64,000 bases of DNA from Candidatus Oxydemutatoraceae bacterium (GCA_965220085.1 CBDCOZ010000003.1:416001-480000); one strand, 5' to 3'; shown: positions 9,446 through 59,607, numbered from the stretch's first letter. Numbers and translations are program-made. Notes: generated by a model not told the origin, from the letters alone.

Positions 9446-10633
9446 ATGATAAATACTATAAATCAAAAAATATTTAATACTACCCCCCCCCCCCCCCCCC
9501 CCCGCTGGCGGACAACGCTAACCCGGCTTAGCCTCTGGCCGCTGGCCCTGCTGGCGGCGGCCCTGTTTGTTCTCTGCGCTCAGGCGCAGGCGCAGACCAA
9601 CACTGCCGCCACCGGCGTACCGGCAGTCACTGATACTGACAGCGGCACTGACTTGACCATGGATGGTCCCAATGAGGACAGCGTACTCACCGTAGCCCAA
9701 GGCACCATAGCTGATGACGATGGCATAACCACATTCACGCCCACCTGGGCCTGGTATGAGGCCGATGCCCCGGCCAGCGGCACCCCCATGGACAGCGCCT
9801 ACTCCGCCATAGCCGGGGCCACCGCCGCCGCTTTCACGCCACTGCAGGAGCATGTGGGCAAGTTTCTGCGCGTCTGCGCCGCCTTTGAGGATGACGATGG
9901 CAACGACGAGACCCGTTGCTGGACCTCCGTTGCGGCGGTGGCCAACACCAATGATGTCAACTCCCTGCCCAGCAGCGTTGATTTCGCCATTGGTCGCACA
10001 TCCCGCTTTCGCCTGAGTGACTTTCGTCACGAAGACGAGGAGGGCGATGATTATGAGATAGATACTTTGATACTGACGGAAGTGCCCGTGCGCGCTCTCA
10101 GAGCTAATGGAAGAATAAATCTTGGATCGACCATATCTTTATTCCCAAGAGACTTCGCTTCAAACAGCGGCGCACTCACATACACACCGCCCGACACAGC
10201 CACGGTCGGCAGCAATCGCCTCAGCTTTAAATTCCAGATGTTTGACACCGGCCCCCCCGCCCTTCAATCGGGACCCCCCGCCGCCATGACCATCAACCTG
10301 GTGGCCAACAGTGCGCCCGATTTTGGCGATGCAGCGGTGGGCACCCGTATTTGGCCGCCCGGCACGACGACCGCGCCTCTGATATTGCCCGCAGCCACCG
10401 GCGGCAATGGCGCCATCACCTACGGCATAAGCCCGGCCCTGCCCGACGGCCTCGCCTTTGATGCCGACACTCGCACCATCAGCGGCACACCCACGGCGGT
10501 ATCCGCCGTCGCCGAATACACCCTCACCGCCGCCGATGCGGATGACGACGAGGCCACGCTGACCTTCGGCATAGACCCGATGCACCCCGTGCGCTTGCGC
10601 TTGCGCCTCTTCCTGGAAGGGCCGTTGCGGTAA
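9446..10633 (+). CDS. Secreted Ig-like/cadherin-like/He_PIG repeat protein with C-terminal VRLRLRLFLEGPLR tail (cargo 1)
   Basis: AGGAG RBS at 9431-9435; signal peptide ending AQAQAQ; ATGVPAVT...IAGAT...VGKFLRVC Ig-like module; LPDGLAFDADTRTISGTPT putative Ig domain. Confidence 0.85.
   Translation: MINTINQKIFNTTPPPPPPRWRTTLTRLSLWPLALLAAALFVLCAQAQAQTNTAATGVPAVTDTDSGTDLTMDGPNEDSVLTVAQGTIADDDGITTFTPTWAWYEADAPASGTPMDSAYSAIAGATAAAFTPLQEHVGKFLRVCAAFEDDDGNDETRCWTSVAAVANTNDVNSLPSSVDFAIGRTSRFRLSDFRHEDEEGDDYEIDTLILTEVPVRALRANGRINLGSTISLFPRDFASNSGALTYTPPDTATVGSNRLSFKFQMFDTGPPALQSGPPAAMTINLVANSAPDFGDAAVGTRIWPPGTTTAPLILPAATGGNGAITYGISPALPDGLAFDADTRTISGTPTAVSAVAEYTLTAADADDDEATLTFGIDPMHPVRLRLRLFLEGPLR
9483..9503 (+). 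repeat. Poly-C(21) tract in the 5' coding region of cargo 1
   Basis: 21 consecutive C encoding a polyproline run; the paralogue has only CCCC at the equivalent site. Confidence 0.9.
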
Positions 10634-10674
10634 CGGAAACACGCTTTATACACAAACCACACAGGAGTCATACG

Positions 10675-12162
10675 ATGAACAGACGAATTTTTAATACTGC
10701 CCCGCATTGGCGGGCAACACTCGCCCGGCTTGGCCTCCGGTCACTTATTCTGCCGGCCCTGTTTGTTCTCTGCGCTCAGGCGCAGGCGCAGAACGCCACC
10801 GGGGAACCGGGCGTCACGGCGGCCGACAGCGCCGACTTGACCATGGTCGGCCCGAATGAGGACAGCGCACTGACCGCCGCCCGTGGCGACATAGCCGACA
10901 CCGATGGCATCACCACATTCACGCCCGCCTGGGCCTGGCATGAGGGCGACACCGCCGATGGCGACTTCACCGCCATAGCCGGGGCCGCCGCCGCCACTTT
11001 CACCCCCCTGCAGGCCCATGTCGGCAAGTTCATCCGCGCCTGTGCCACCTTTGACGATGACGACAGCAACAGCGAGACCCGATGCTGGACCTCCGTCGCC
11101 GCTGTGGTCAATGTCAACGATATACCAGTTGGCCTGCCAAATACCATTTATGTGCCGGCGGGCGGCAGTTACACTTTCTCGGTGGACGACTTTCCCGTTA
11201 CTGATGAGGATGGCGACAGTCTGGTCATAGCGGGAGTGGCCAGGGCCTCCAAAGGCTCTCTTACCTTCAACGGCAATCCAATCACCTCGGCCTTGGTTGA
11301 TTTCACGGCCGCCCGACTGACAGCCGGCGCATTTGGCTACACGCCGCCCTCCGATGCGGGGCCCATGTCCGGCTATGCCACCTTTGAGTGGATTCCAACC
11401 ACCAAGGACAACTCAGCCGGCAACGTCGGTACAGTAACAGTAGCTACCACCATAGATCTGGTGTCGGCCACGGCATCGGCGGCCATGGGCGAACCGGCGG
11501 TGACGGCTACAACGGGCACCGCCCACCGCGAAGGTGTGGAACTGACCGCCAGCACAGGCACCGTGACCGATGCTAACGGCATCCCCACCCACACCCGTAT
11601 CTGGCAATGGCAACAGTCCGACGTCCGGGCCGGTCCATACGCCGACATCCCCGGGGCCGCCGCTGTCACCTTCACTCCCGCACGGGCCCATGTCGGCCGA
11701 TACATCCGCGTCTGCCTCAGTTTCACCGATGCCATAGACACCGCCGAGACCCGCTGCTCCGCTGGCAACGTCATCGCCTATGTCAATTCGGTGAGTGTGC
11801 CGACTGCCGCCGACGAATCAGAGCCCTATATTTTCAAGCCATCCGACTTCATGTTCCCGGGCGATGTCGGCAACCTGCAAAGCGTAACCATACGCACCGC
11901 CATAGCATCCGACAAGGGCATATTGCGCAACGGCGCCACCGCAGTGACCGCCGGCGCCACAGTGACCGCCGCCGCCCTGCGCAACGGCGACCTCACTTTC
12001 TATCCCGCGGGCAGATTCGCCGCCACCCCCAACTACGCCAGTTTCACCTTCACCGTGAACTATGGCGGCGGCATAAACACCGGAATCCGCACCATGAACA
12101 TACATCTGACGGAGCGCCTGCGCTTGCGCTTGCGCCTTTTCCTGGAAGGCCCGTTGCGATAG
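10675..12162 (+). CDS. Secreted Ig-like/cadherin-like repeat protein with C-terminal RLRLRLRLFLEGPLR tail (cargo 2), paralogue of 9446-10633
   Basis: Leader and first module closely similar to cargo 1; two ATGEP/AMGEP modules alternate with DF..D.DGD-type modules; same C-terminal tail. Confidence 0.88.
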   Translation: MNRRIFNTAPHWRATLARLGLRSLILPALFVLCAQAQAQNATGEPGVTAADSADLTMVGPNEDSALTAARGDIADTDGITTFTPAWAWHEGDTADGDFTAIAGAAAATFTPLQAHVGKFIRACATFDDDDSNSETRCWTSVAAVVNVNDIPVGLPNTIYVPAGGSYTFSVDDFPVTDEDGDSLVIAGVARASKGSLTFNGNPITSALVDFTAARLTAGAFGYTPPSDAGPMSGYATFEWIPTTKDNSAGNVGTVTVATTIDLVSATASAAMGEPAVTATTGTAHREGVELTASTGTVTDANGIPTHTRIWQWQQSDVRAGPYADIPGAAAVTFTPARAHVGRYIRVCLSFTDAIDTAETRCSAGNVIAYVNSVSVPTAADESEPYIFKPSDFMFPGDVGNLQSVTIRTAIASDKGILRNGATAVTAGATVTAAALRNGDLTFYPAGRFAATPNYASFTFTVNYGGGINTGIRTMNIHLTERLRLRLRLFLEGPLR

Positions 12163-12167
12163 CGCAA

Positions 12168-12205
12168 GCAACCCACAGCGGAGCAGGGGAGCGCTGTGGG
12201 GTTGC
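12168..12205. terminator. Stem-loop after cargo 2 (possible terminator)
   Basis: GCAACCCACAGCG...CGCTGTGGGGTTGC imperfect inverted repeat; no clear U-tract. Confidence 0.4.
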
Positions 12206-12256
12206 AAAGGATGAGAATATCGCAAATTGTTCTATAATCGCCATACCAAACAATCT

Positions 12257-13480
12257 ATGATGATGGACCTGACTCTTTTCGAACAAGTTTTGCTGTGGGG
12301 ATTCGTAATCGCCATAGTCATGGGCGCGGTGACTTCCAAGACCAATTTCTGCACGATGGGCGCGGTGTCGGACTGGATCAATATCGCCGATACCGGGCGC
12401 TTGCGGGCGTGGCTGTTCTCTATTGCGGTGGCGATACTTGGCGTCGCCGCATTGGACAGTGCGGCGGTTGTTGACATGACGTTGGCCGATAGCGGCGAGA
12501 CGGGCAAGCCGCCATACGGCGCTCCGCAGTTTGTCTGGTTGCGTTACGTTCTCGGCGGTTTGTTGTTTGGCATCGGCATGACGCTCGGCTCGGGCTGCGG
12601 TAACAAGACGCTGATCCGGATCGGCGGAGGCAATTTGAAGTCCGTCGTTGTCTTTCTTGCGATGGGCGTCGGCGCATACCTGATGATATATACCGACTTC
12701 GGTCATATCGCGTTCATCGGTTGGATGCCGGTGATGGACCTGGGGTCTTTTGGCTTGACGAGTCAGGGGGTTGACGAGATTCTCATGCGTTCCGCGGGCG
12801 GCGAAAGAGCCGCATGGGGATATATCACGCCGCTTGTGATAGGTGTCTTACTGCTCATGATAGCGTTTGCCTCAGCCGACTTTCGCAAGCAACCCGACAA
12901 CATGCTCGGCGGCGCGGTCGTCGGTCTTGCGGTGGTCGCCGCCTGGTATGTGACCGCCGGTCCGCTTGGGCAGACTTTGCTGGAGGAACTCGCTTTCTTG
13001 GATACGCCGCCGTACGATGCCGGGGCGCAATCGTTTACTTTTGTTAAGCCGAGCGGGCAGTTTTTCTATTGGTTGCAGGAAGGTTTCTCCCTGTCTTATT
13101 TAAGCTTTGCGTTGGTTGCCGGGTTTGGCGTCATTGTCGGGTCATTTTTGTATTCGGCGCTGAGCGGCGGCTTGCGTTTGGAAAAGTTTGCCGATGGCGC
13201 CGATTTTCTTCGGCACTTAATCGGCGGTCTGATGATGGGTATCGGCGGCGTGCTGTCGCTCGGGTGTACTTTTGGGCAAGCGATTACGGGCGCGTCCACG
13301 CTTGCCGTCGGTTCGTTCGTCACCTTTGTGTTCATCGTGTTTGGCGCCGCCGTCGCGCTGAAGTTTCAGTATTATCAGATGGTTTACGGGAGCGACACCA
13401 CGGTGTTCAAAACCTTGCTTACGGTATTTGCGGATTTTCGCCTCGTGCCGTCGTCTTGGCGCAAGTTGGAGAGCATCTGA
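12257..13480 (+). CDS. YeeE/YedE family sulfur-compound (thiosulfate) transporter
   Basis: NFCTMGAVSD, GMTLGSGC, GGVLSLGCTFGQ motifs; multi-TM. Confidence 0.9.
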   Translation: MMMDLTLFEQVLLWGFVIAIVMGAVTSKTNFCTMGAVSDWINIADTGRLRAWLFSIAVAILGVAALDSAAVVDMTLADSGETGKPPYGAPQFVWLRYVLGGLLFGIGMTLGSGCGNKTLIRIGGGNLKSVVVFLAMGVGAYLMIYTDFGHIAFIGWMPVMDLGSFGLTSQGVDEILMRSAGGERAAWGYITPLVIGVLLLMIAFASADFRKQPDNMLGGAVVGLAVVAAWYVTAGPLGQTLLEELAFLDTPPYDAGAQSFTFVKPSGQFFYWLQEGFSLSYLSFALVAGFGVIVGSFLYSALSGGLRLEKFADGADFLRHLIGGLMMGIGGVLSLGCTFGQAITGASTLAVGSFVTFVFIVFGAAVALKFQYYQMVYGSDTTVFKTLLTVFADFRLVPSSWRKLESI

Positions 13481-44544: not shown

Positions 44545-44554
44545 GCACAGCGGG

Positions 44555-45178: not shown

Positions 45179-45585
45179 AGCATTTTCGTTCGGCCGGCTT
45201 TACCCTGATCGAAGTGCTCATCGCCGTCGTCGTCCTGTCTATTTCGCTGGGCGCGGCGCTTGAGGCCCTGTCCGGATTTGCCAACACCCAGGCGCGCTTA
45301 CAGGAACGCTACTGCGCGCATCTTGTCGCGTGGGAAGACGCATTATTCTTTTATGCCGACGACGACGAGGTGGTGCAAGCCGGTTTTTCCGAGCAGTGCG
45401 GAGTCGATTGGAAAGTGGATACCGAGGAGTTTGAAATTCATGCCGCCGAAGACTGCGAAGAAGACGAATATTGCCTGCCGATCAGAATCGTTGCGCAAAC
45501 GCTGAAAGTGTACTCGCCGGCCAACGACGATATTGATGCGCGCCCGTCCGCCCGCTTGCAAGTGGTTAAGTTACGGTTGGATTAA
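45175..45585 (+). CDS. gspI: Minor pseudopilin GspI
   Basis: AG/FTLIEVLIA, GTG start overlapping the gspH stop. Confidence 0.85.
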   Translation: MKHFRSAGFTLIEVLIAVVVLSISLGAALEALSGFANTQARLQERYCAHLVAWEDALFFYADDDEVVQAGFSEQCGVDWKVDTEEFEIHAAEDCEEDEYCLPIRIVAQTLKVYSPANDDIDARPSARLQVVKLRLD

Positions 45586-46269
45586 ATGCGGCGGCAAGGT
45601 TTCACATTGATTGAAGTGATCATCGCGATGATGATTTTTGCGATTATTACGACCCTGACATTTCAAGGCCTGCAAACCTCCATGGATGTGCAACAGAAGG
45701 TCGAAGAGAAGGCGGCGGTATTTAAGGACATGCAGTTACTGGTGACCTTGATGCACGAGGACTTTTCCAATTTGATTCGCCGCTCGGTGCGTCCCTCGCT
45801 GGGCGACGATTATCTGCCCTCTTTTGCCATCGGCGACATAACGGAGCAAGGCCGGGAGTCGTCTTACGACTGTGTGGTGCAGTTTACGCGCGCCGGTTTG
45901 CCGCAAGGCGTCGGCGCGTTGCGCTCCGGAATGGTTCGCGTGGCATATTGCTTTGATGACGACAGCAACTTATACCGCCTGCTGTGGCCGGTGTTGGATC
46001 GGGCGCAAGACAGCCTGCCAAACGAGAGCCTGTTGATCGAAGAGGTCGCCGAGTTTGCGGTGGAGCTGAGCGAAGAAGATTTGGAGGAATGGGAAGAATA
46101 CGAGTGCGGCGATACCGCCCGCTGGACCGATACCTGTCGTGATTGGCTTCCCGGCGGCAGCGTAAAGATGACGCTGGGGCTTGATACCGAAAGCGGTTTG
46201 GTCAGTTTTAGTCGCAGTTTCCCGGTTGGCAGCGGGGTAGGGATACAGCTTTGGAAACTAAAGGCGTAA
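45586..46269 (+). CDS. gspJ: Minor pseudopilin GspJ
   Basis: QG/FTLIEVIIA, RVAY...LYR..WPVLDRA. Confidence 0.9.
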   Translation: MRRQGFTLIEVIIAMMIFAIITTLTFQGLQTSMDVQQKVEEKAAVFKDMQLLVTLMHEDFSNLIRRSVRPSLGDDYLPSFAIGDITEQGRESSYDCVVQFTRAGLPQGVGALRSGMVRVAYCFDDDSNLYRLLWPVLDRAQDSLPNESLLIEEVAEFAVELSEEDLEEWEEYECGDTARWTDTCRDWLPGGSVKMTLGLDTESGLVSFSRSFPVGSGVGIQLWKLKA

Positions 46270-46271
46270 AC

Positions 46272-47591: not shown

Positions 47592-47594
47592 AAA

Positions 47595-48752
47595 ATGACG
47601 GCGGCAGTGCGAAGCCTTATAATAAAACCATCATCACCGGAAACATTTGATATGCGGAAAATTACTCTTGACTCAACCATTGTCGAATTGACATCATCGG
47701 AGGAACGCGCTTCCCCCGCCAACATCGTCTGGGTTCCGTCCGAGCAACTGTCTTTCGCCGATTGCCAAATGCCGCCCACGCGCAAAATGTTGCATCAAAT
47801 GGTTTCATTCGCGCTGGAAGATCAGGTGCTGGAACCGATTGAAAAATTGCACTTTGCATTAGGCAATCCGAGCGCCGACACGATACCCGCCATCGTGGTA
47901 TCGCGCCGGCGAATGGATGACTGGGGCGAGTTGCTCGCAAGCGAAGGCATCGGCAAGCATGTATTGCTGCCCGACATATACGCCCTGCCCTTTGAAGCAG
48001 GCCGGGTCGGCATCTGGCACGAAGGCGACCGTTGCCTGCTTCGTAACGGAGCGCACTCTGGCTTTGCCGGCAGCCTTGAATGGATTTCGGTAATCGCGGG
48101 CATGGAAAGCTACGCTAACCGCCTGGATATTTATAGCGATAATGTCGAAGCGCTGCCGGAGGAATGGCGCCCGCTCGCGCGTCCCTTATTGGCGCCGTTG
48201 GATGAGATGATGTTGCGTTGCAACGGGCGCGACGCCATCAACCTGCTCCAAAGCGATTATCGAACCTCCGCCCCGATAGCCGCATGGGCGCGCCCGTGGC
48301 GCGCGGCGGCGGCGATAATGCTGGCCGCGCTGACCGCTCACATCGGCAACATGACAGTTGCCGAGCGCCTGCTGGATGCGCAGACGAACGAGTTGCAAAA
48401 GGCCACCGTCGGCTTGTTCAAGACAATCGATGCATCCGGCAACCCGAGCAATCTGCGCGCCCGGGTATCGCAACAAGTACGGAACCTGCGCGAGCATCAG
48501 AACAAAAGCGAAAACAACGCGTGGGATATTATGGTTGAGCTGGATCGGGCGCTTTCCGGGTGCGACAGTTGCCGCGTGGAGTCGCTTGAGTTGGATGTCA
48601 ACACGGCAAAAATCAAGCTCCGCAGCGAAGGCGACTTTGAGCAAATCAAAGACACCTTGCTCAACATTCGGTCGCTTGAAGCGAGTCACAAAGTGTTGCG
48701 CGAAGGCGAGGGCTACAACCTCTCGCGGTTTGAATTCAAGGCGGTGTCATGA
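47595..48752 (+). CDS. gspL: T2SS protein GspL (start may be 47652)
   Basis: FALEDQV..IE.LHFA, LPD..ALP, INLLQ, single TM. Confidence 0.85.
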   Translation: MTAAVRSLIIKPSSPETFDMRKITLDSTIVELTSSEERASPANIVWVPSEQLSFADCQMPPTRKMLHQMVSFALEDQVLEPIEKLHFALGNPSADTIPAIVVSRRRMDDWGELLASEGIGKHVLLPDIYALPFEAGRVGIWHEGDRCLLRNGAHSGFAGSLEWISVIAGMESYANRLDIYSDNVEALPEEWRPLARPLLAPLDEMMLRCNGRDAINLLQSDYRTSAPIAAWARPWRAAAAIMLAALTAHIGNMTVAERLLDAQTNELQKATVGLFKTIDASGNPSNLRARVSQQVRNLREHQNKSENNAWDIMVELDRALSGCDSCRVESLELDVNTAKIKLRSEGDFEQIKDTLLNIRSLEASHKVLREGEGYNLSRFEFKAVS

Positions 48753-49246
48753 AGTCTCCTTTTGCCAATTTGGCGCGACTGTGGCAAGCGCGCGAACCGC
48801 GCGAGCAAGTCATGCTTATTGCCACGGTTGTTCTGCTAACCGCCTTCGTATTTGAAACATTCGCGTACCAACCGCTGCGGGCGAACTACGACAGCAGCGT
48901 TACCCGCCACGCCGCCGCAACCGATGATTACCGCTGGTTGCAAAGCAAGGCGCGCACTGTGAAGGACTTGCGGGCAAACAGCTCTGCGACCGTGACGATG
49001 ACAGCGGAGCAAAAGCGCGATGCGATTGAACAAAGCCTGCTGGAGTCGGGAATGGAGTTTGATATGGAAGTATTTGACGAGGAAGAAGGCAAAGGCATTT
49101 TGGCAGTCCGCATTAAAATCGCCGCCGGCAGGTCTCTGATGCGCTGGGTCGGCAAGCGCATCGAAGACGGTTATTGGTTGCGGGAGTTGTCGCTCAAAGC
49201 GAACCCCCGAGGGGATGTCTCCGCAACCGTTCATTTTGAGTTATAA
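48749..49246 (+). CDS. gspM: T2SS protein GspM
   Basis: W..REPREQ, TM, YQP; follows gspL. Confidence 0.8.
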   Translation: MKSPFANLARLWQAREPREQVMLIATVVLLTAFVFETFAYQPLRANYDSSVTRHAAATDDYRWLQSKARTVKDLRANSSATVTMTAEQKRDAIEQSLLESGMEFDMEVFDEEEGKGILAVRIKIAAGRSLMRWVGKRIEDGYWLRELSLKANPRGDVSATVHFEL

Positions 49247-49255
49247 GGCGGCGGG

Positions 49256-50032
49256 GTGTCCGTGTTCAAGCGTCTGCTATTTTTATTGCTTCTTGTGGTT
49301 CTCCTGCTCGGCGCCTTCGCCGCCTCGGTGCCCCTGCGCTTTATGGTCGATAACGCTGTCGTCGCCTTGCCGAAGGGCATATCGGATTTGCGCGGCGCCA
49401 TCGCAAAGGGCTCTGTGCGGCTGGATGTTGCGACACTGCCCGCCGCCCGCCCGATCGCGGCATCGCTGCCATCGATTGACATCGCATGGCAGTGGTGCCC
49501 CGGCATTCCCGATCTGGCGGCGCTATGTGTGCAAGCGCGCAGCAGCGCCGCGGATGTCGGTCTTGCCGGCGCGCTCGCATGGTCGCCGTTTGGCGCCACA
49601 ATTTCCGCCGCCTCGCTGACAGGAAACATAGATAACTTCCCGGTCAAAACGAGTCGGGCTTCGCTGCCCGTGAGCATGCAAATGAAAATGTCTCTGGACA
49701 ATGCCCGCTTTGCGTCCGGCGCGCTATTCCCGCAAGATGTGCGGGGGCGGATAGCGCTGCAGAAGCTAACCATCGCCGGCTATGACCTGGGAGACTTCAA
49801 CGCGGCTCTGGCATCCGATGAACAAGGGCGCATCGGCATCCGCCTGCAAGGCAAAGGAGAATTGATACGGACAGTCGTCGGTACCGCCGGAGTGACGGCG
49901 AAAGGCTGGGACTACGACATCACAGTGAAAACCGAAGACACCATCGTGCGCAGCTTCCTTGAACGCCGTGGCAAACCGTCGGCCGCCGGCTTTCAACTGA
50001 CCGCCAAAGGCAACTGGCAACGCCAACCATAG
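49256..50032 (+). CDS. gspN: T2SS protein GspN-like
   Basis: N-terminal TM then beta-rich domain; last gene of the cluster. Confidence 0.65.
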   Translation: MSVFKRLLFLLLLVVLLLGAFAASVPLRFMVDNAVVALPKGISDLRGAIAKGSVRLDVATLPAARPIAASLPSIDIAWQWCPGIPDLAALCVQARSSAADVGLAGALAWSPFGATISAASLTGNIDNFPVKTSRASLPVSMQMKMSLDNARFASGALFPQDVRGRIALQKLTIAGYDLGDFNAALASDEQGRIGIRLQGKGELIRTVVGTAGVTAKGWDYDITVKTEDTIVRSFLERRGKPSAAGFQLTAKGNWQRQP

Positions 50033-50255
50033 CCCTCCCTTCGGGGGCTAAGCGGCCGCCTTGGCGGCAACTATTGCGCAGAGGCCGCAGACCCTTAAAT
50101 ACCGCCGGTCAGATAAACCGCGCCTTTCGTCACAATCGGTCAAACCGGCAGCGTTTTTAAGCGTATGTTTGGTTTTTTTAATGAGGGCGGACTTTGTTAT
50201 ACTATAGTTTATACAGTTAGTCCTCGCGAGTATTAACCGAAAAGAGGATTAAAAA

Positions 50256-50549
50256 ATGGAAGCACAAATGAATACCGAACAATACAACGCAATCATGGAC
50301 CAGCTTCGGATGCTTGGCACGAAATTTGATCACCTTGACACAAGGCTCGGCAACCTTGAGCAAAAGGTTGAGCACATTGACACAAGGCTCGGCAACCTTG
50401 AGCAAAAGGTCGGCGGGCTTGAAAAAGAGATGCGCGCATCTCACCAAAGCGCCATCCGCTGGGTGATGGGCTTGTTCGTAGCGGCATTGCTTGTAAACGG
50501 CCCGGTCATCGGCGCGATTGTCAGCGTCGTCATACTGAAGATGGTTTAA
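50256..50549 (+). CDS. Small coiled-coil protein with C-terminal TM (DUF1640/Bdr-like architecture), copy 1
   Basis: Heptads DTRLGNL/EQKV, then IRWVMGLFVAALL TM; AAGAGG RBS. Confidence 0.75.
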   Translation: MEAQMNTEQYNAIMDQLRMLGTKFDHLDTRLGNLEQKVEHIDTRLGNLEQKVGGLEKEMRASHQSAIRWVMGLFVAALLVNGPVIGAIVSVVILKMV

Positions 50550-50947
50550 TGAGCACGACCCTCGCACAACTCATGGAGCAAGCCGCAACCGCAGCAGACA
50601 CGGTAGAAGTAGCGGACGCAAAGAACATGGTCGGCGATGCCAACACCCAGTTTGTCGATGTGCGCGACCTGCGCGAGTTACAGGAACACGGCAAGATCCC
50701 CGGAGCGATTCACGCATCGCGCGGCATGCTGGAATTTCTAATCGACCCGCAAAGCCCGTATCACAACAAAGCGTTCGTGCCTGCCGGCGCAACAGAAGGG
50801 AAGCGCTATGTGGTCTATTGCAAGTCGGGCGGTCGCTCTGTTCTTGCCGCTGCCAGAATGAAAGAGATGGGATATCACAATGTATGTCACATGGCGGGCG
50901 GCTTTAAGTTGTGGCAAGATTCAGAGGGCGAGATCGAGCAAACATGA
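50549..50947 (+). CDS. Single-domain rhodanese, copy 1
   Basis: VDVRD..E, IPGAIHASRGMLEF, YCKSGGRS, MAGGF..W. Confidence 0.92.
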   Translation: MSTTLAQLMEQAATAADTVEVADAKNMVGDANTQFVDVRDLRELQEHGKIPGAIHASRGMLEFLIDPQSPYHNKAFVPAGATEGKRYVVYCKSGGRSVLAAARMKEMGYHNVCHMAGGFKLWQDSEGEIEQT

Positions 50948-51328
50948 TGGCTAGTCAAGCATTCGGAAATATCGCCGGACAATGCCCGCTTTGCAACCGG
51001 TGCGCCATTCCCGCAAGACATGCGGGGCGGATGGCGCCGCAACGGCTAACCCTCGCCGGCTTTCAACTGACTGCCAAAGGCAACTGGCAACGCCAACCAT
51101 AGCCCTCCCTCCGGGGGCTAAGCGGCCGCCGCCTTGGCGGCAACTATTGCGCAGAGGTCGCAGACCCTTAAATACCGCCGGTCAGATAGACCGCGCCTTT
51201 CGTCACAATCGGTCAAACCGGCAGTGTTTTTAAGCGTATGTTTGGTTTTTTTCAATGAGGGCAAACTTTGTTATACTTGGTGTATACAGTTAGTCCTCAC
51301 GAGTATTAACCGAAAAGAGGATTAAAAA

Positions 51329-51601
51329 ATGAAAACGCAAATGAATACCGAACAATACAACGCAATCATGGACCAGCTTCGGATGCTTGGCACGAAATTT
51401 GATCACCTTGACACAAGGGTCGGCAACCTTGAGCAAAGGTTCGGCAACCTTGAGCAAAAGGTCGGCGGGCTTGAAAGAGAGATGCACGCATCTCATCAAA
51501 GCGCCATCCGCTGGGTGATGGGCTTGTTCGTAGCGGCATTGCTTGTAAACGGCCCGGTCATCGGCGCGATTGTCAGCGTCGTCATACTGAAGATGGTTTA
51601 A
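51329..51601 (+). CDS. Small coiled-coil/TM protein, copy 2
   Basis: Near-identical to 50256-50549 with one fewer heptad. Confidence 0.75.
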   Translation: MKTQMNTEQYNAIMDQLRMLGTKFDHLDTRVGNLEQRFGNLEQKVGGLEREMHASHQSAIRWVMGLFVAALLVNGPVIGAIVSVVILKMV

Positions 51602-51787
51602 TGAATACCGCGCAATACAACGCAATCATGGGCCCGCTTTGCAACCGGTGCGCCATTCCCGCAAGATATGCGGGGCGGCGGGCACAGCAAAGGCTAACCC
51701 TCGCTGGCTATAACCCGGCGAGTTTTTGTTATACTGTGGTTCACAGTCCTCACGAGGATTAACCTAAGGGAGGACGAAAACAAGGAA

Positions 51788-52033
51788 ATGCAAATGGATA
51801 CCGCGCAATACAACGCAATCATGGGCCCGCTTCGGATGCTTGGCACAAGGCTCGGCAACCTCGGCACAAGGGCCGGCAACCTCGGCACCCGTGTCGGCGG
51901 GCTTGAAAAAGAGATGTGCGCATCTCATCAAAACACCATCCGCTGGGTGATGGGTTTGCTCGTAGCGGCATTGCTTGTAAACGGCCCGGTCATCGGCGCG
52001 ATTGTCAGCGTCATCATATTGAAGACAGTTTAA
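51788..52033 (+). CDS. Small coiled-coil/TM protein, copy 3 (diverged)
   Basis: Same TM tail; heptads GTRLGNL/GTRAGNL. Confidence 0.6.
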   Translation: MQMDTAQYNAIMGPLRMLGTRLGNLGTRAGNLGTRVGGLEKEMCASHQNTIRWVMGLLVAALLVNGPVIGAIVSVIILKTV

Positions 52034-52437
52034 TGAGCACGACCCTCGCACAACTCATGGAGCAAGCCGTCGCCGCCGTAGACACGGTAGAAGCAGCGAC
52101 CGCAAAGAACATGGTCGGCGATGCCAACACCCAGTTTGTCGATGTGCGCGACCTGCGCGAGTTACAAGAACACGGCAAGGTGCCGGGAGCGATTCACGCC
52201 TCGCGCGGCATGCTGGAATTTCTAATCGACCCGCAAAGCCCGTATCACGACAAAGCATTCGTGCCGGCAGGCGCGACGGAAGGCAAGCGCTATGTGATTT
52301 ACTGCAAGTCCGGCGGGCGCTCTGCTCTTGCCGCCGCCACAATGAAAGAGATGGGCTATCACAATATATGCCACATGGCGGGCGGCTTTCAGTCGTGGCA
52401 AGATTTAGAAGGCGAGATCGAGCAAGTAGATGACTAA
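52033..52437 (+). CDS. Single-domain rhodanese, copy 2
   Basis: MSTTLAQLMEQA start, near-identical to 50549-50947. Confidence 0.9.
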   Translation: MSTTLAQLMEQAVAAVDTVEAATAKNMVGDANTQFVDVRDLRELQEHGKVPGAIHASRGMLEFLIDPQSPYHDKAFVPAGATEGKRYVIYCKSGGRSALAAATMKEMGYHNICHMAGGFQSWQDLEGEIEQVDD

Positions 52438-52441
52438 TCAA

Positions 52442-52935
52442 GCATCTAAAAATGGAAAGCGCTGCGCGGTCTGTTGCAAGTCGAGCGGGCGCTCTGTTCT
52501 TGCCGTTGCAAGAATGCAAGAGATGGGCTATCACAATGTATGTCCCATGGCGGGCGGCTTTAAGTTGTGGCAAGATTCGGCAGGCGAGAGCGAGCGAACG
52601 GGTGACTAATCAAACATCTAAGAATCGAGTGAACGTCATGACTAATCAAGCATCTAAAAATCGAGCGAACGGCATGACTAATCAAGCATATGAAAAAGGG
52701 AAGCGCTACGCGGTCTGTTGCAAGAAGTTCTGCGGCGCGTTTAATCGCTCCCTGCATCTAAAAATGGAAAGCGCTGCGCGGTCTGTTGCAAGTCGAGCGG
52801 GCGCTCTGTTCTTGCCGTTGCAAAAATGCAAGAGATGGGCTATCACAATGTATGTCCCATGGCGGGCGGCTTTCAGTTGTGGCAAGATTCGGCAGGCGAG
52901 ATCGAGCAAACAGATGGCTAATCACGCATATGAAA
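52442..52935 (+). pseudogene. Two degenerate copies of the rhodanese 3' half (312-bp period)
   Basis: GGTCTGTTGCAAGTCGAGCGGGCGCTCTGTTCTTGCC...GAGATGGGCTATCACAATG matches the rhodanese CKSGGRS...EMGYHN region. Confidence 0.8.
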
Positions 52936-53174: not shown

Positions 53175-54137
53175 ATGAAAATACAACTCAAGCAACTCGT
53201 ATTCTATTTTGCAACGACGATGGCTTTTGTCGTCTTGTTGTCGGCTCACGCGAATGCGCAAAGGTCAATGAACACTGGTTTGTCAGATTTTATTCCCGCC
53301 GATGATCCGTATTGTCATGATGGTGAGGATGATAATTTCGTATCGAGAACAACGGTGACCGGTTCGGATACGCCGGGTGATCGGGGTGATGAAAACATAT
53401 CACCCTGTGAGGACATCACATTGTCTGTGGGGAACGACGATGACGATGCCACCACCGACGATGCTCCCTTCCCCGCTAGTGTTGTGGATTGGGTGCTGGT
53501 TGACTTGCGACAAGCGGGCACTGCCGAAGGCGCCGCAGTCGGTGGTGTCGTCGCGCGCAAGCCGGCGTTATTGCTGAGTAATGGGCGCGTAGTGGATGCC
53601 GCAGGGTTTATTGCCTCGACAGGCGCCGACCCTGAGAATACCGCTTGCGCCGGTATCGCTGAAGACGAAACGAATTGCCCGGCGGTTCAATTTGGTTCTG
53701 ATGCGTTTGGGACAGGAAGTCCCGAAGATGGTAACTACTTTATTGTGATTCATCACCGCAATCATGCGTCAGTGATGACGGCCGCGGCAGTCACAGTCAC
53801 TGGTAGCGCAGGTGCCTTTGATTTTGCAGATGCGACGGCGCCAGACGCAATATTTGGTAGCACTAGTAAGATGGTTTCAGGTAATCCACCGGTACTGGCG
53901 GCCCTGGCTGGTGATTCCGCCGCCATTGCTTTTGGAGGGACCATTGCTTTTAGAAACAAGGATAATGGGGTGTTGCCGTCCGATTTTTTGGGTATGTTTC
54001 CTCGATCAGCCCAGGGGGGATATAATTTCGCCGATATAAATATGGATCAAACTGCCGCGCCGTCTGATTGGCTTCCATACCTGTCACCTTCAAATAATCT
54101 AAGTCTAGGTACTGGGATTACAGTACAACCAAATTAA
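53175..54137 (+). CDS. Secreted stand-alone dockerin-like-containing domain lacking its first strand (putative adaptor)
   Basis: Signal peptide ...SAHANA; MNTGL..IP..DPY, VVDWVLVDLR, VVARKPALLLSNGRVVD, GNYFIVIHHRNH, ALAGD, GYNFADINMD motifs. Confidence 0.75.
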   Translation: MKIQLKQLVFYFATTMAFVVLLSAHANAQRSMNTGLSDFIPADDPYCHDGEDDNFVSRTTVTGSDTPGDRGDENISPCEDITLSVGNDDDDATTDDAPFPASVVDWVLVDLRQAGTAEGAAVGGVVARKPALLLSNGRVVDAAGFIASTGADPENTACAGIAEDETNCPAVQFGSDAFGTGSPEDGNYFIVIHHRNHASVMTAAAVTVTGSAGAFDFADATAPDAIFGSTSKMVSGNPPVLAALAGDSAAIAFGGTIAFRNKDNGVLPSDFLGMFPRSAQGGYNFADINMDQTAAPSDWLPYLSPSNNLSLGTGITVQPN

Positions 54138-54204: not shown

Positions 54205-57200
54205 ATGAAATCAATTATGAAAAGAACATTTATCGGCTTATTTAGCTTAAGCATAATAGGCTTCGGAAATGTCCTATATGCACAGGATGCTGATCCTGCT
54301 TATGAGGAAGGTTTTTATGTGGGAGGCAATCCTACTGATGCCACATGTTCCGGTTGCGAGGAAGCAGAGATTCGTTTCAGCAACGCGACCGTTTCGGGAG
54401 AATCCTTTTCCTTTGATGTGGATATGAAGCCGGAGGCGACGGTCGGACTTGCTTCTTTCGGAGTGAGGGTCCAGTTGAACACTGATGCGATTAACAGAGC
54501 CGAGTGCGCGGTATCAAATGCCAGGCCTCCCGCAGCCGGAAGTGATATAACTGCTGTAGCAGATACCATCGCCGATGACAGATTTAACGTTATTTTGTCC
54601 AGACTCCCACAAGTGCTTGGTTTTGGCCCCAGCACGTCATTGTCAGACTTTATAGTGGTGAACGCTAATGTTTGGAACAGGATGTTTACAATGACCTGTC
54701 CTATAACGGATAATACGATGCCTGCTGAGATAGCATTCCACTCGGGTCTATGGAAGGAAGCTGCAAGAATTAATCTTACGCCTACTCTTGGGGCAGGAGA
54801 AACTAGATCTATAACAATTGCGTTGCGAGCAACGAACGCTTTGCTTGATGCACCGCTGTTTGAAGTGCCCTTCATGGTGGGTTACACGCTGGACGAGTGG
54901 GTGGGAGAGCCATCCGCAACCAGCCCGACTGTCACGGTCTATGACACGTTGAAGTACACGGTCAATTTCTCCGGTTCAATAGTGAGCGGACCGGATGAGA
55001 TCATGTATGACTTGGAAGCTGTGCGCAGAGATGGTTCCGTCATCGCTGCCGGCACCACCAGAGGCGGCGGTGCGGCGGCGGCCAGCACGGCTACTGCCAC
55101 TGCCACTACCGAGACTGCTGTTGCTCAGGGTTCCCCATCTGTCGTTGTTCTTCTGGATAGCATTATGGGGACGGGCACTACCGCCAGCGCTACTATTCTT
55201 ACGGATGCGGGCACTGCGACTGGTGTTATTATTCGGGAGAGCATTCCGGTCACTAGCGGCACTGCTGCCGGCGATTCCGGCCCGATTACGGGTGTCGTCC
55301 TTCCGGATGACGTTACCGAGGCGCTTACCGTTACAGAGGTAGAGGCCAACGGGACCTATACGGTGGAATTGAACAAAGGCGTCATCATTAATTTTGACAG
55401 CGAAGAAAACGCCGATAATCCAATTGACTACTATCGCATAGCGATGTACACGGGTTCGTCGGTGGTTCTGAATGCGACCGCGATAAGTGATGATATGTAT
55501 GCTTATACGCTACCGGATGAGGATCGAATACCGGTCCAAGACGAATGGGCGGCGACATTTAGCGATGTCACGGCGATTCCCATTAGCCGACTAGGCGACG
55601 ACAGGTTCCATGTCATCGTGAACTTCGGCGCTCCGGTGTCCGCTATTGATACCGCTGCCGGCGAAATCGCCATGAGTGTGATGTCTAATGGCGGCACGAT
55701 CACGGGCGCTTCGGTGGTGCCGGGTTCTCTCAGGCTGGGTTTCCCAACCGGTGTGAATCTGAACACCAATCCGACCGAGCTGATGGCAGTGGAGGCCGAG
55801 GCGAATGTGGTGAGCTTTATGGTTGACCCGACGGGTACTTTGGATCAAGGCGAATCAGCGCTTGGCAACGAAGTATTCACGGCGACCTTGCCATCCGGCT
55901 TGATTACCGTCGAAGGCACCAGCGAGTTTGATCCGCTGGAGTTTGAGGCCATTGAGAATGGCGCTCCGGAGATCAGAGCTTTCATGGTGTCTACTCAGAG
56001 CAAGGTCTACACAATAGGGGCCAACGATGCTCGTACGCTCGGAGATATCATCTATACGGCGACATTCACCGAGCCGGTTGGCGCCATTGCGGGTCAATTG
56101 AGAGCCGCTCTGACGACAACCGCCAAGCTTCACCCGCTGTCGGAAGACAGAATCATTGCGGGCATAGCGGGTTTGACCGCCGGCGCTTCTGTTACCGACG
56201 GGACGATTGCCTTCGGCGAAGCATTAAACCAGAGGCCGACGGTGTCTGTTTCGGGTAACGAAGCGACTCTGACCTTCTCGAATGTTGAGATCAGCAGCGA
56301 TGTGAACAGTCTTGTCGCTGTGATCGAAGCGGGTAGCCCTGTATTTGGTCTGGTTGAGGATTGCGAAAGCCTCACCGGCTGGTACACGGCTCCGGACGGC
56401 AGTCCGCGGCGCAATGCCAGAACGGATGCTTGTGTGGCACAAGAAGCCGCCGATGCGCCGACTGGCGATGTGGTGAGCGCTGAGCCTGCGCCAGTAGAAG
56501 GCGCCGGAACCGGCGCGCCGACTGATCCACACAGAGTTTCGCGTGTTGCCGGCCTTTATGTCGGAACACTGGCGGAGCGTATGGAGCATTTCCGCTGGAC
56601 AGTTAGCGCCGGCGTTGCGACAGTGGAGCCTCAGAATGCCAATGGCGATCCGTTCCCGCTTCGCGACCAAATGCGCAGTGTGCCGTTTCAGGTTCAATGG
56701 AGAATAGCCGATGCCAGAGGGTTCTCGCTCAGAGGCATGGAGGCTACGGCGTTGCAATACTATCAATTCCTTGAGGAAGTCGAGTTCAGAGACCGGCTGA
56801 CGGTCGTGCCTGACGGTGAGACCGCGGCTACGGTGATAGTTGAAAGAACTACCCGTACCGATGCTGTGGCTGTTCCGGTGGCTCTGGTAGACCCTGTCTC
56901 TGACGATGCGTCATTTGCAGCAGGGTTTGCCCCAGGCGCTAATCAAGGACCCGTTGAGATTCCTTTTGCTGATGCGACCCAGTTGATATATAGGATCAGC
57001 ACTTCCAGCACTGTTTGGAGAATGGGTGAGCCTTTGACAAGCTTGGCAACCGCCGTCTATGCCGCTGGCATTGTCGACCAAGCCAGAGCCGCTCGGCTGA
57101 ATGCCGGACAAACTCCGCCGGCAGTGGTGACGGGTGTCAGCCAGGGCTTCTTACAAGTGCAAGCCGGTAACACGGTGACGGTGACCTATGAAAATGGCAT

Positions 57201-58257
57201 GTCAGGCCCGGGTGCCCCCTGTGATTTGCTGGCGCTACCCGGCGCTACCGATGCATGTTCAAGCCTCCACGAGATGACGATAAGCACCTCGACAGAAGTC
57301 ACGGTGATGGCTATGCTGACGGGACGAAACGTTGAGTTGACAATAGATGCCAGCGCGCATGCTATTGGCGATATTGTTTCCCTTGGGCTTGACCTGAGAC
57401 ATGCCGGAAGCACCGAGTTCGTTCTGCCCCTCAACCTCGTAGTGGTGAATGACGCGGACGCGGAGATATTGGGAGGCGCCGACGCTAATGGCAACGGTAT
57501 CCCGGATGCGCAAGACATGGCGAGCGCTTACATTCTGCCTCTGAGCTCCATGGCCCTCTATGCTGCGCCGACCGACCGGTACAGCCTGTCGGCGAGAGTC
57601 GGTTATCGGACGCTTAGTCGCTTGGCAAGCCGCGTGGAAGGCGCTGACATGTTGGAAGCGCGTAACTTCCGCATGGGTGATCTCCCCGGTGTGTTTGGTT
57701 CCAATGATGCGGACATAATAGCTCTGCACTTTGCGAACTACAATGTCATGAGCGATGTCGTGGATGGCAATTATGTCGCCGGAAGAGTCGGCTTGGTGTT
57801 CTCACTGAACGGAGTGAGCGCTCTTACGGATGTCCCGGTGCGCTTTGAGAAGTACAGCGGGCGGACATTTGAACCCGTAGAAGGCAGCGATGCCGAATAC
57901 GGCACATTCAATAGTCAGGGTACCGTTGTCGGTACTGATGACTGTCCGGAGGATAACGGCTATGCCTCTTCGCCGTATCGTGACGCTGAGGGCAACCTCA
58001 TGACCGGTCGCGGTGATTGCATGGTTGTCTACATCACTGACGGCGGACAGTACGATGAAGATGGGCAGCGCAACGGGGTCGTAGTTGACCCGGGTCGTGC
58101 TGCTATCGGCGCCGCGCCTGAGGCTCCTCAGCCTACTGTCACCACCGGCGGTGGCGGCGGTGGCGGTGGCGCTATCGCTTTGAACGAAGTAATAGGCTTA
58201 CTTGCTCTGTTGGGACTGGTGGCCTACGGCATACGTCGGCAGCGTAGATACGAATAA
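54205..58257 (+). CDS. Large acidic surface protein with choice-of-anchor-U-like domain and GlyGly-CTERM (putative scaffold)
   Basis: Signal peptide; ITDGGQYDEDGQRNGVVVDPG; GGGGGGGG, hydrophobic TM, RRQRR tail; alternative start 54148 comes from a 57-bp duplication of RBS and start. Confidence 0.85.
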   Translation: MKSIMKRTFIGLFSLSIIGFGNVLYAQDADPAYEEGFYVGGNPTDATCSGCEEAEIRFSNATVSGESFSFDVDMKPEATVGLASFGVRVQLNTDAINRAECAVSNARPPAAGSDITAVADTIADDRFNVILSRLPQVLGFGPSTSLSDFIVVNANVWNRMFTMTCPITDNTMPAEIAFHSGLWKEAARINLTPTLGAGETRSITIALRATNALLDAPLFEVPFMVGYTLDEWVGEPSATSPTVTVYDTLKYTVNFSGSIVSGPDEIMYDLEAVRRDGSVIAAGTTRGGGAAAASTATATATTETAVAQGSPSVVVLLDSIMGTGTTASATILTDAGTATGVIIRESIPVTSGTAAGDSGPITGVVLPDDVTEALTVTEVEANGTYTVELNKGVIINFDSEENADNPIDYYRIAMYTGSSVVLNATAISDDMYAYTLPDEDRIPVQDEWAATFSDVTAIPISRLGDDRFHVIVNFGAPVSAIDTAAGEIAMSVMSNGGTITGASVVPGSLRLGFPTGVNLNTNPTELMAVEAEANVVSFMVDPTGTLDQGESALGNEVFTATLPSGLITVEGTSEFDPLEFEAIENGAPEIRAFMVSTQSKVYTIGANDARTLGDIIYTATFTEPVGAIAGQLRAALTTTAKLHPLSEDRIIAGIAGLTAGASVTDGTIAFGEALNQRPTVSVSGNEATLTFSNVEISSDVNSLVAVIEAGSPVFGLVEDCESLTGWYTAPDGSPRRNARTDACVAQEAADAPTGDVVSAEPAPVEGAGTGAPTDPHRVSRVAGLYVGTLAERMEHFRWTVSAGVATVEPQNANGDPFPLRDQMRSVPFQVQWRIADARGFSLRGMEATALQYYQFLEEVEFRDRLTVVPDGETAATVIVERTTRTDAVAVPVALVDPVSDDASFAAGFAPGANQGPVEIPFADATQLIYRISTSSTVWRMGEPLTSLATAVYAAGIVDQARAARLNAGQTPPAVVTGVSQGFLQVQAGNTVTVTYENGMSGPGAPCDLLALPGATDACSSLHEMTISTSTEVTVMAMLTGRNVELTIDASAHAIGDIVSLGLDLRHAGSTEFVLPLNLVVVNDADAEILGGADANGNGIPDAQDMASAYILPLSSMALYAAPTDRYSLSARVGYRTLSRLASRVEGADMLEARNFRMGDLPGVFGSNDADIIALHFANYNVMSDVVDGNYVAGRVGLVFSLNGVSALTDVPVRFEKYSGRTFEPVEGSDAEYGTFNSQGTVVGTDDCPEDNGYASSPYRDAEGNLMTGRGDCMVVYITDGGQYDEDGQRNGVVVDPGRAAIGAAPEAPQPTVTTGGGGGGGGAIALNEVIGLLALLGLVAYGIRRQRRYE

Positions 58258-58291
58258 TAATAAACTGTCATTAGCTTTTAGCTATACCTAT

Positions 58292-58327
58292 AAAGGCACA
58301 CTCCGAATGGGGTGTGCCTTTTTTTTA
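58292..58327 (+). terminator. Rho-independent terminator
   Basis: AAAGGCACAC-TCCGAATGGG-GTGTGCCTTT followed by a T-tract. Confidence 0.9.
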
Positions 58328-58379
58328 TGGGAATTATGTGCCCGAACAGATAAATGAGATTGCCGCTTCTTGAGCAGCA

Positions 58380-58700
58380 GCAGGTCCTTAATTGTCGCTT
58401 GGCCGGCTTCTTATTCTCATATATTGCCCCTGTCGGCAGCTTGCTTAGCAGCGCATCTTTTGCCGCTTCGGCGAACGCCTTGAGGGATATTTTCTTGTGC
58501 CCCCTAAAGACGGCTTGTTTTCGCTTAGATTGCCGCTTTTTGAGCGAGTAGCGGGTTCTTAATTGTCGCTTGTCGGCCTCTTATTCTCATGCATTGACCC
58601 TGTCGGCGGCTTCTCTGGCAGCACATCTTTTGCCGCTTCGGCGAATGCCTCAAGAGATATTCTCTTATGGTCACCCTTATAAAGACGGTTTATTTTCGCT
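58380..58700. repeat. Diverged tandem duplication (about 172-bp period)
   Basis: CTTAATTGTCGCTTG...CATCTTTTGCCGCTTCGGCGAA occurs twice. Confidence 0.75.
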
Positions 58701-58929
58701 TGGTGAGTCTCTTGTATGACAGCCGCTTGCCACCGTGCTTTTGGCTGACGCTTTCATGCGATCCGTTATGAATCCGGTCGATAACCCGCAAATCTTTATA
58801 TTCCAATGTTTTCGGGATTGCCTGTGTATTCGGTATATAATTCCTTTTTTATAGGGGGCGCGGCATTTGATGCCGTTACCAACCCTATGTATTCGGTATA
58901 TAATTCCTTTTTTATAGAGTGATTCAATT

Positions 58930-59607
58930 TTGCAAATGAGACATTACACCACAGCCGACACCTGCCATATCGTTTACGATGTTTTTCCAGTGATATTGGC
59001 ATTGGCATCGCTGGTTCTTGTGTGCACATCGCACAGCGATAAATTTCTGTATGACAGAGAGTTGCTCATGGAAGGGGAGTTATGGCGATTGATTACCGGT
59101 CATCTCAGCCACCTTACAGCCGGGCACGGGGTCCTCAATCTATGCGGCTTGGCGATTCTTATGATAGCGGGATATGGCATGGTCGGGCTGGGGATAGGTG
59201 TGCAACTGATTTGCTTGCTGTGCTTCGCTTTGCTGATATCGACGGCCTTTTATTTCTCCCTCCCCGACCTGCAATATTATGGCGGCCTGTCGGGCGCCTT
59301 GCACGGGCTTTATGCCCTCATTGCGGTCGTATATGGGTGTCCCCCCATAGGCGCTGTTGCCAATACCGGAAAATCGCTGTCTATGCCCCAAAAAGCGGCT
59401 TTTTTTACCCCGACTGCTATCGGCGGCATAATGTTGCTCGCGATGGCGGCTAAAGTCGTCTACGAGGTCTTTTTTGACCAGAATCGCTCAATAGATGGCA
59501 TACCTGTCCTCGTCGAATCGCACACAATTGGCGCACTGGCGGGCATCGGCGTATCGTTTGTGCTGATTCTTTTAATCCTTGAAGGCAAAGTAAAGCTGCT
59601 ACGCTAG
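58930..59607 (+). CDS. rrtA: Rhombosortase (rhomboid protease for GlyGly-CTERM proteins)
   Basis: YDR...GELWRLITGHLSH...H..LN, YGGLSGALHG catalytic Ser, ESHTIG catalytic His; adjacent to a GlyGly-CTERM gene. Confidence 0.88.
   Translation: MQMRHYTTADTCHIVYDVFPVILALASLVLVCTSHSDKFLYDRELLMEGELWRLITGHLSHLTAGHGVLNLCGLAILMIAGYGMVGLGIGVQLICLLCFALLISTAFYFSLPDLQYYGGLSGALHGLYALIAVVYGCPPIGAVANTGKSLSMPQKAAFFTPTAIGGIMLLAMAAKVVYEVFFDQNRSIDGIPVLVESHTIGALAGIGVSFVLILLILEGKVKLLR

Follow-up and report, generated by a model that had tools for sequence, protein, structure and literature searches.

A short terminal peptide of about 220 proteins and the secreted adaptor predicted to receive it in a Candidatus Oxydemutatoraceae genome

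A stretch of 64,000 nucleotides from a Candidatus Oxydemutatoraceae bacterium (GCA_965220085.1 CBDCOZ010000003.1:416001-480000) is referred to below as the window. Between positions 9446 and 59607 it encodes two secreted cargo proteins that end in the same short peptide, a secreted adaptor, a large protein with a GlyGly-CTERM-type end (the scaffold), a rhombosortase and a type II secretion system (T2SS). The 13-residue peptide is carried by about 220 proteins of this genome, and it corresponds exactly to the strand by which the adaptor falls short of a domain that is contiguous in relatives. We take the peptide to be a docking tag, usable at either end of a protein, which would be the detached first β-strand of a β-domain of about 200 residues with a dockerin-like end. 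In relatives each surface protein ends in the complete domain; here the remainder would be made once, as the adaptor. After Sec export the tag of a cargo would take its place as an additional strand between two that the incomplete adaptor already has, and the cargo would thereby gain in trans the module that relatives hold in cis. The dockerin-like end of the adaptor would then fix the cargo-adaptor pair on the neighbouring GlyGly-CTERM protein, which would be cut and lipid-anchored by the adjacent rhombosortase and brought to the surface by the adjacent T2SS. About 190 cargo genes would compete for the one adaptor, and slippage-prone poly-C tracts, 82 in all, would make the displayed set differ from cell to cell.

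Complementation of the adaptor by the tag, judged from the sequences and from a modelled complex, is likely. For the full chain, from complementation through docking on the GlyGly-CTERM protein to surface display, we put the probability at about 0.65; the binding of adaptor to scaffold, the site of assembly, the display at the surface and the phase variation are the steps that we infer. The widest form of the proposal is tentative, a little short of even odds: fission of a domain would have produced a natural many-to-one tag and catcher, with about 220 proteins on one lipid-anchored stalk and 82 random switches, giving a combinatorial coat.

The terminal peptide and the proteins that carry it

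The genome of the window (G000; 2,492,841 bases in 3 contigs) is that of a small uncultured marine bacterium. The motif [FLIVM]LEGPLR directly followed by a stop codon closes 217 stop-to-stop frames in its 2.49 Mb. The genome scan for further tail-ended frames that had been proposed in a first-pass annotation of the window, in which two were seen, thus raised the number of tagged proteins to about 220. The frames of at least 150 residues number 185 of the 217, and their last eleven residues read R-L-R-[LIV]-F-L-E-G-P-L-R in 185 of 185, without exception; the tag consensus is (L/I/V)RLRLR(L/I/V)FLEGPLR. The chain ends two residues past LEGP in all 217 frames, and no transmembrane helix and basic cluster of the tripartite type follow; the tag itself has no hydrophobic helix and no basic tail. 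Elsewhere in G000 the motif [FLIVM]LEGP occurs only 8 times, 3 of them in proteins tagged at the N-terminus. A DNA pattern for R-x-R-x-F-L-E-G gave 217 matches against 1 for the reversed control, which, with the 217 frames, places the shared tail far beyond chance. Together the tagged frames comprise 155,554 residues or 18.7% of the genome length, a total that depends on the start codons we chose, and they include giants of 15,193, 14,215, 13,255, 9,777 and 6,024 residues.

In the DNA that encodes the tag, codon positions 1 and 2 are fixed and third positions vary. The stop codon behind it is TAG in 137 cases, TAA in 52 and TGA in 28, and conservation of the DNA fades about 9 nucleotides past the stop. 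This variation at third codon positions and stops indicates that selection acts on the peptide; a DNA repeat or recombination cassette was rejected on the same ground. About 31 short frames (<100 amino acids) also end in the tag and represent orphan or tandemly duplicated gene tails, for example three copies 168 nucleotides apart on C3 of G000. The bases TAG-CGCGAG past the tag's stop are partly conserved.

At three proteins (G000:C1:36355-38001, C1:23865-25292 and C3:1171407-1173515) the tag is N-terminal. The order in these is signal peptide, short linker, LRLRLRVFLEGPLR, GGS and then the protein, and two of the three are PPC-repeat proteins. A C-terminal position is therefore not required for the tag.

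The two cargo genes of the window lie on the plus strand. Cargo gene 1 (9446-10633) encodes 395 amino acids counted from the ATG, with the leader MINTINQKIFNT, a stretch of prolines encoded by a poly-C tract, a signal peptide, an Ig-type domain (He_PIG, E 2e-09 in Pfam) and the C-terminal tag VRLRLRLFLEGPLR (10589-10630). Cargo gene 2 (10675-12162; 495 amino acids) is without a poly-C tract and has a signal peptide, weak Big_9/CshA-type repeats and the tag LRLRLRLFLEGPLR (12118-12159). Both open reading frames (ORFs) terminate in RLRLRLFLEGPLR and then the stop; the pair of secreted Ig/cadherin-type proteins with a common tail, as first annotated, was thus borne out. Of the tagged frames, 170 measure 150-1200 amino acids; 40 of these, drawn at random, were compared with Pfam, and the 15 longer frames were excluded. 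Most had no match; He_PIG was found in 5, Cadherin_4 in 4 and Flg_new_2 in 3, and PPC, Cadherin, CshA_repeat and LDcluster4 in 1 each. Single-linkage clustering of the cargo gave no useful grouping, 182 of 185 proteins ending up in a single cluster.

A poly-C tract of 21 bases (9483-9503, plus strand) separates the start codon from the signal peptide in cargo gene 1, and in the assembly it is in frame, that is, in the ON state. In G000 as a whole 90 runs of C or G of 9-28 nucleotides were found, against 2 runs of A or T. Of these 90, 82 are poly-C on the sense strand at the 5' end of tagged frames, between start codon and signal peptide. Runs of at least 12 nucleotides number 83 in G000 and 0-15 in each of 18 relatives. 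An in-frame ATG leader is present in 23 of the 82 tracts, about one third, as read from an assembly in which tract lengths are error-prone; in most of the other 59 the conserved leader M..Q(I/V)FNT lies in another frame. Three sequencing runs aligned to 9300-12300 yielded contigs that break at the tract (9471-9514), and 4 raw reads only. The tracts suggest slipped-strand phase variation, of which they are a signature, and with such variation behind the start codon of 82 cargo genes the displayed set would differ between cells.

The adaptor and the predicted complex

The adaptor gene (53175-54137, plus strand) encodes a secreted protein of 320 amino acids, and it is present in single copy in G000. 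An AAGAGG Shine-Dalgarno sequence lies 7 nucleotides ahead of the ATG at 53175; a TTG at 53169 is an alternative start. The signal peptide ends ANA-Q and is directly followed by RSMNTGLSDFIPADDPY. The further motifs are, in order, VVDWVLVDLR, VVARKPALLLSNGRVVDA, YFIVIHHRNH, ALAGD and GYNFADINMD, with ARKPALLLSNGRVVDA between VVDWVLVDLR and IHHRNH; translation of 53175-54137 thus reproduced the motifs (RSMNTGLSDFIPADDPY, VVDWVLVDLR, IHHRNH and GYNFADINMD) that had been noticed at first. Read-through into the adaptor, or fusion to it, was considered and rejected on account of its own Shine-Dalgarno sequence and signal peptide, the latter being conserved in 52 homologues.

No Pfam or NCBIfam family matched the adaptor. 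Homologues of nearly its length numbered 23, and a search of 1.84 billion representative sequences gave 1049 matches at E<=1e-3. Among these 1049 the best are stand-alone proteins of 260-330 amino acids; lower down, the match is to the C-terminal domain of a long protein. Compared with the protein Atlas, an adaptor homologue matched only Bacteroidota clusters, 15% of which contain dockerin. In all 52 stand-alone homologues examined, a set that omits P0018 because it has no DWVLVEL anchor, the sequence M..L..(I/V)P..DPYC follows directly behind the signal peptide, and a strand of the form h-L-[EQ]-G-[PAS] is present in 0 of the 52.

The long proteins were compared as a set of 83 domain copies inside longer frames, drawn from Bacteroidota, Ignavibacteriota, Calditrichota and others and from the related genome G004. 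Just upstream of M.T.L..IP..QPY a strict h-[LFI]-[EQ]-G-[PAS] strand is present in 68 of the 83, and 14 of the remaining 15 have plain variants of it such as KVFLAGAY, so that the strand is found in 82 of 83. The contiguous domain that the first-pass annotation had described does therefore exist. Its consensus over 49 fused copies, KVFLEGPY......M.T.L.....LP..QPY, may be compared with RLFLEGPLR of the tag. When the alignment of adaptors was compared with that of fused domains by hhalign (probability 100, E 2.2e-52), the strand of the fused form was laid on the end of the adaptors' signal peptides; the mature adaptor thus begins just behind strand 1. By sequence, the adaptor is a receiver domain without one strand, cut exactly where it had been proposed to be. 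No fused copy of the domain was found in G000, and there is no copy of the tag DNA in the adaptor gene.

The fused domain is about 200 residues long, and its last 50 match type I dockerins (E 7e-4 to 0.05 in a profile search of the PDB). Pfam Dockerin_1 (PF00404) is matched by 14 of 49 fused domains and dockerin_GC by 5 of 49. The β-part matched none of the libraries searched, and Pfam gave no Por_Secre_tail match either in the 49 fused domains or in the adaptor. The dockerin-like character claimed for the domain end was thus detected in some of the fused copies; in the window's own adaptor the dockerin-type loops look degenerate in the alignment.

The complex was predicted from the mature adaptor, supplied with its alignment, and the last 100 residues of cargo 1, comprising the Ig domain and the tag. 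Three runs gave an ipSAE (interaction prediction score from aligned errors) of 0.82, 0.79 and 0.82, against 0.00 for all three controls; the mark used for this score is reached by 58 of 80 solved complexes and by 2 of 110 mismatched pairs. The runs had at least 69% of contacts in common, and the partner's predicted local distance difference test (pLDDT) score was at least 83. On the cargo side the predicted interface consists of residues 379-390, that is, of the tag. Residues 382-387 are placed between two strands of the adaptor, formed by 172-175 on one side and 215-218 on the other (numbered from the TTG at 53169), and they also contact residues 111, 139-141 and 192, in the conserved strands VDWVLV, SNGRV and FIVIHHRNH. 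Residue 34 of the adaptor, the first conserved one behind the cut, is within the predicted interface. These contacts are as expected for strand complementation; insertion of the tag into the adaptor, which had been proposed for the cargo tail from the sequence, is thus also what the complex prediction indicates.

Gene neighbourhood, relatives and competing explanations

The scaffold gene (54205-58257, plus strand; alternative start 54148) follows the adaptor and encodes about 1350 amino acids. Its features are a signal peptide, a conserved head domain with Cys residues, a stretch resembling choice_anch_U and, at 58141-58254, an end of the GlyGly-CTERM type. The C-terminus consists of TTGGGGGGGGAIALNEVIGLLALLGLVAYGIRRQRRYE, a Gly run, a hydrophobic helix and the basic cluster RRQRRYE. 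This layout was recognised by eye in the last 38 residues and in the counterparts of 9 genomes; no NCBIfam GlyGly-CTERM model was listed for the scaffold at E<=1, and a regular expression for such ends also missed it. The rhombosortase gene (58930-59607, plus strand; TIGR03902, 96 bits, cut-off 84) begins after a gap of 673 nucleotides, so that protease and putative target are neighbours. Rhombosortases above the TIGR03902 cut-off are present in 18 of 19 genomes of the family. Upstream lies the T2SS cluster (36100-49246, plus strand), with GspC, D, A, B, E, F, G, two N-methyl pseudopilins, J, K, L and M; it is complete, with Pfam matches above cut-off for C, D, E, F, G, J, K, L, M, A and B. 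The ORF behind it (49256-50032) matched no family and is conserved at the same place in relatives. A terminator-like hairpin (58292-58321, plus strand; stem of 13 pairs, T run) just 3' of the scaffold gene suggests that adaptor and scaffold form one transcription unit; ahead of the adaptor are promoter-like sites, and hairpin and sites alike are weak evidence, by consensus.

The gene order is conserved. In six genomes (G000, G009, G010, G005, G018 and G014) the genes for adaptor, GlyGly-CTERM protein and rhombosortase follow one another, and so do those for adaptor and GlyGly-CTERM protein in G006, G012 and G016; T2SS genes are directly upstream of the adaptor in G000, G009, G013 and G010. The association of adaptor, GlyGly-CTERM protein and rhombosortase noted in the window was therefore upheld, with the T2SS adjoining in three of the six genomes. 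The scaffold-type giants share a head domain; in a MAFFT alignment of 13 sequences it spans about 200 residues, in which three Cys are conserved and an A.N motif is found. Tag-ended giants flanking an adaptor carry the same head. In three metagenomic proteins (P0056, P0060 and P0073) a scaffold-type head is joined with an adaptor-type domain that is intact and includes its first strand, LVEINVLLGGGVRG, and the same fusion is present at L105:7514-9466. From the gene order and this natural fusion of head and adaptor-type domain we infer that the adaptor would bind the scaffold.

Several further features of the neighbourhood were noted. A second GlyGly-CTERM-type candidate with a PPC domain (G000:C3:1167958-1169079, 373 amino acids) sits 2.3 kb upstream of an N-terminally tagged PPC protein. 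Directly upstream of the T2SS cluster, 33817-36069 encodes a Wzy_C (O-antigen ligase-type) protein fused to TPR repeats. Between the T2SS and the adaptor lies a duplicated block (50217-52573) with rhodanese genes at 50549-50947 and 51916-52437, each preceded by a near-identical antisense ORF. Beyond the rhombosortase lie two ORFs built of repeats (60689-61525 and 63145-63687); one consists of tandem ERMEAKFDDKFKEVDARF units behind a membrane helix, and in the other an 11-residue unit, KRKAAPKKRTV on the minus strand, occurs nine times.

Fused and split forms both occur within the one family. For comparison, 18 other genomes of the family and 42 of neighbouring families were used; related genomes are not statistically independent, and the tag patterns miss divergent variants. 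The adaptor profile matched in 16 of the 18 and in 0 of the 42. The strict pattern R-x-R-x-F-L-E-G was found in 10 of the 18 (1-23 each, control 0) and in 0 of the 42 (1 control match in all); a looser pattern was not used where control counts were high, as in G020 with 27 against 25. In G004 the fused form is found: 28 matched stretches all lie inside open frames of 687 to 17,496 amino acids, with the contiguous form ...ARVVLQGALL...MRSDL..LP..QPY...IVDWVLVELR...IHHRNH...GDVDRNGVID in 8 of 8 loci read, 7 of them C-terminal, and strict tags number 0. Tag variants are, by their sequences, lineage-specific. Those of Candidatus Porisulfidus-related genomes, where the adaptor is flanked by two giant tag-ended genes, are LEGPLQ-stop and LEGPFR-stop, that of G019 and G021 is LEGALE-stop, and G009 and G013 have RVFLEGAVIP and longer tails. 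In G011 neither adaptor nor tags were detected. Tags and adaptors are thus confined to the same family, and this part of the co-occurrence proposed at first stood; apparent exceptions to the pairing in single genomes are described below.

A number of observations weigh against the proposed docking. In G017, a genome in 230 contigs that is 85% complete, about 9 tags (control 2) were counted and no adaptor matched. Conversely, adaptor-like genes are present in genus g5 and G008, where the patterns tried gave no tags. Within the modelled complex the pLDDT of the adaptor is only 58-62, and the predictor may be rebuilding a fold known to it from the fused copies. The window's adaptor matched no dockerin hidden Markov model at E<=1. 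A profile of 13 scaffold-type heads gave neither cohesin nor any other match in the PDB and Pfam. BLASTP and phmmer found only weak local matches between the scaffold and its counterparts in relatives, the heads being linked by MAFFT alone, and in G006, G012 and G016 the rhombosortase lies elsewhere. One adaptor gene for about 190 cargo genes also poses a problem of stoichiometry.

Among other explanations, an unlikely one, yet the strongest, leaves the binding unchanged and alters its purpose. Tag and adaptor would form a secretion device instead of an anchor: the complemented domain would be the folded signal recognised by the T2SS, the adaptor a shared co-substrate or pilot through the secretin, and the cargo might be released. 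T2SS substrates are exported folded and, to our knowledge, have no linear signal. The adaptor directly follows the T2SS cluster in G000, G009, G013 and G010, no other dedicated exporter for the 190 proteins was noticed, and the autotransporter barrel PF03797 is found in 0 of 19 family genomes (E<=1e-5). However, the fused domain is commonest in Bacteroidota and Ignavibacteriota and has there a dockerin-like end, which points to attachment, and the string of adaptor, GlyGly-CTERM protein and rhombosortase in six genomes is not explained by a role in export only. The arrangement in G004 (L160, G004:C1:1125300-1145299), with fused cargo and a T2SS directly followed by the rhombosortase, with no adaptor or GlyGly-CTERM giant between, fits both export and anchoring.

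It is less likely still that the tag is an autonomous sorting or processing signal for other machinery, its likeness to strand 1 being historical and the adaptor having a separate function. Dedicated enzymes commonly read short signals at the C-terminus, such as LPXTG, PEP-CTERM and GlyGly-CTERM (PMC3237569), and the tags of G017 without a detected adaptor would agree with such a signal. But the tag is devoid of the helix and basic tail, and is N-terminal in 3 proteins; exactly its strand is missing in 52 of 52 members of the adaptor family; tags and adaptors are limited to the same family; and the complex prediction passes while its controls stay at 0.00. A very improbable third explanation would make the tails relics of a truncated C-terminal domain or a repeat at the DNA level, such as a recombination site or mobile element. 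The roughly 31 short orphan frames, some of them tandem, and the partly conserved TAG-CGCGAG speak for it. It is countered by the 185 of 185 long frames that keep the motif while third positions and stops vary, by the lack of conservation beyond 9 nucleotides past the stop and by the absence of tag DNA from the adaptor gene, and it would turn 18.7% of a 2.49-Mb genome into relics. Complementation of the adaptor by the tag, followed by docking and display, is thus the reading we prefer.

Relation to known systems

If correct, this reading would describe a new mode of sorting and display of bacterial surface proteins, in which no sorting signal is processed and no folded module docks. It would account for about 190 adhesin-like proteins, with giants of 6,000-15,000 residues, in a symbiont-type genome of 2.5 Mb, and would give a role to an uncatalogued domain in which a great many Bacteroidota and Ignavibacteriota proteins end. 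GlyGly-CTERM/rhombosortase anchoring would be tied to indirect display, and a natural, genetically encoded pair of 13-residue tag and receiver would become available for protein engineering. The presence of fused and split forms within one family makes the evolutionary step directly testable. The first-pass annotation knew of no description of the arrangement, and full-text literature searches, with supplementary files outside their scope, likewise gave no paper on the tag-adaptor system; the docking principle, a domain split between cargo and shared receiver, is probably new to the literature searched.

The anchoring end of the proposed chain resembles known GlyGly-CTERM systems. A report on Vibrio cholerae VesB (PMC6219818) states that its surface localisation needs GlyGly-CTERM, rhombosortase and T2SS and comes about through a lipid-like modification, and according to Haft and Varghese (PMC3237569) rhombosortase and a single target tend to adjoin. 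The scaffold has what looks by eye like a tripartite end, with the rhombosortase beside this apparent main target and the T2SS adjacent. In known cases, however, each surface protein has its own GlyGly-CTERM; here two proteins apparently do, and one of these would carry about 220 others by means of the adaptor. With LPXTG, PEP-CTERM, MYXO-CTERM and the C-terminal domain of type IX secretion the tag has in common that one signal is found on dozens to hundreds of unrelated exported proteins. Unlike those signals, it is without membrane helix or basic tail, implies no processing enzyme and occurs also at the N-terminus; and, as to type IX secretion, no Por_Secre_tail was found in the 49 fused domains.

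Contingency loci with homopolymeric tracts are known in Neisseria and Campylobacter. The likeness here is a long poly-C in the 5' coding region of genes for surface proteins, with 23 of 82 in frame. What differs is the number, 82 tracts of up to 28 bases in 2.5 Mb, all in genes with one docking tag, and the setting in an uncultured symbiont-type genome, where the tracts are known from assembly sequence alone.

In the cellulosomes of Clostridia, display is by cohesin and dockerin. As there, many secreted proteins would plug into a cell-anchored scaffold by one small module, and the fused domain resembles type I dockerins over its C-terminal 50 residues. In contrast to cellulosomes, the cargo bears a strand of 13 residues and not a folded module, the dockerin-like part is on a third protein, no cohesin was detected, and the lipid-anchored scaffold would be that of a Gram-negative cell.

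Donor-strand complementation or exchange, in chaperone-usher and type V pili, completes a β-sandwich with a strand from another polypeptide. The adaptor is similarly an incomplete β-domain, with the tag predicted between two of its strands. No polymer would be formed here, however; one receiver would serve about 220 unrelated donors, and the donor strand would derive from fission of a domain still contiguous in relatives. No chaperone or usher was noticed in the window, in which no search was aimed at them.

A further parallel in layout is engineered: SpyTag/SpyCatcher is a split CnaB2 domain whose 13-residue tag works at either terminus. In both, a peptide of 13 residues would restore a split β-domain from either end of a protein. 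The present pair shows no sign of isopeptide chemistry; it is natural and belongs to another, uncatalogued fold family.

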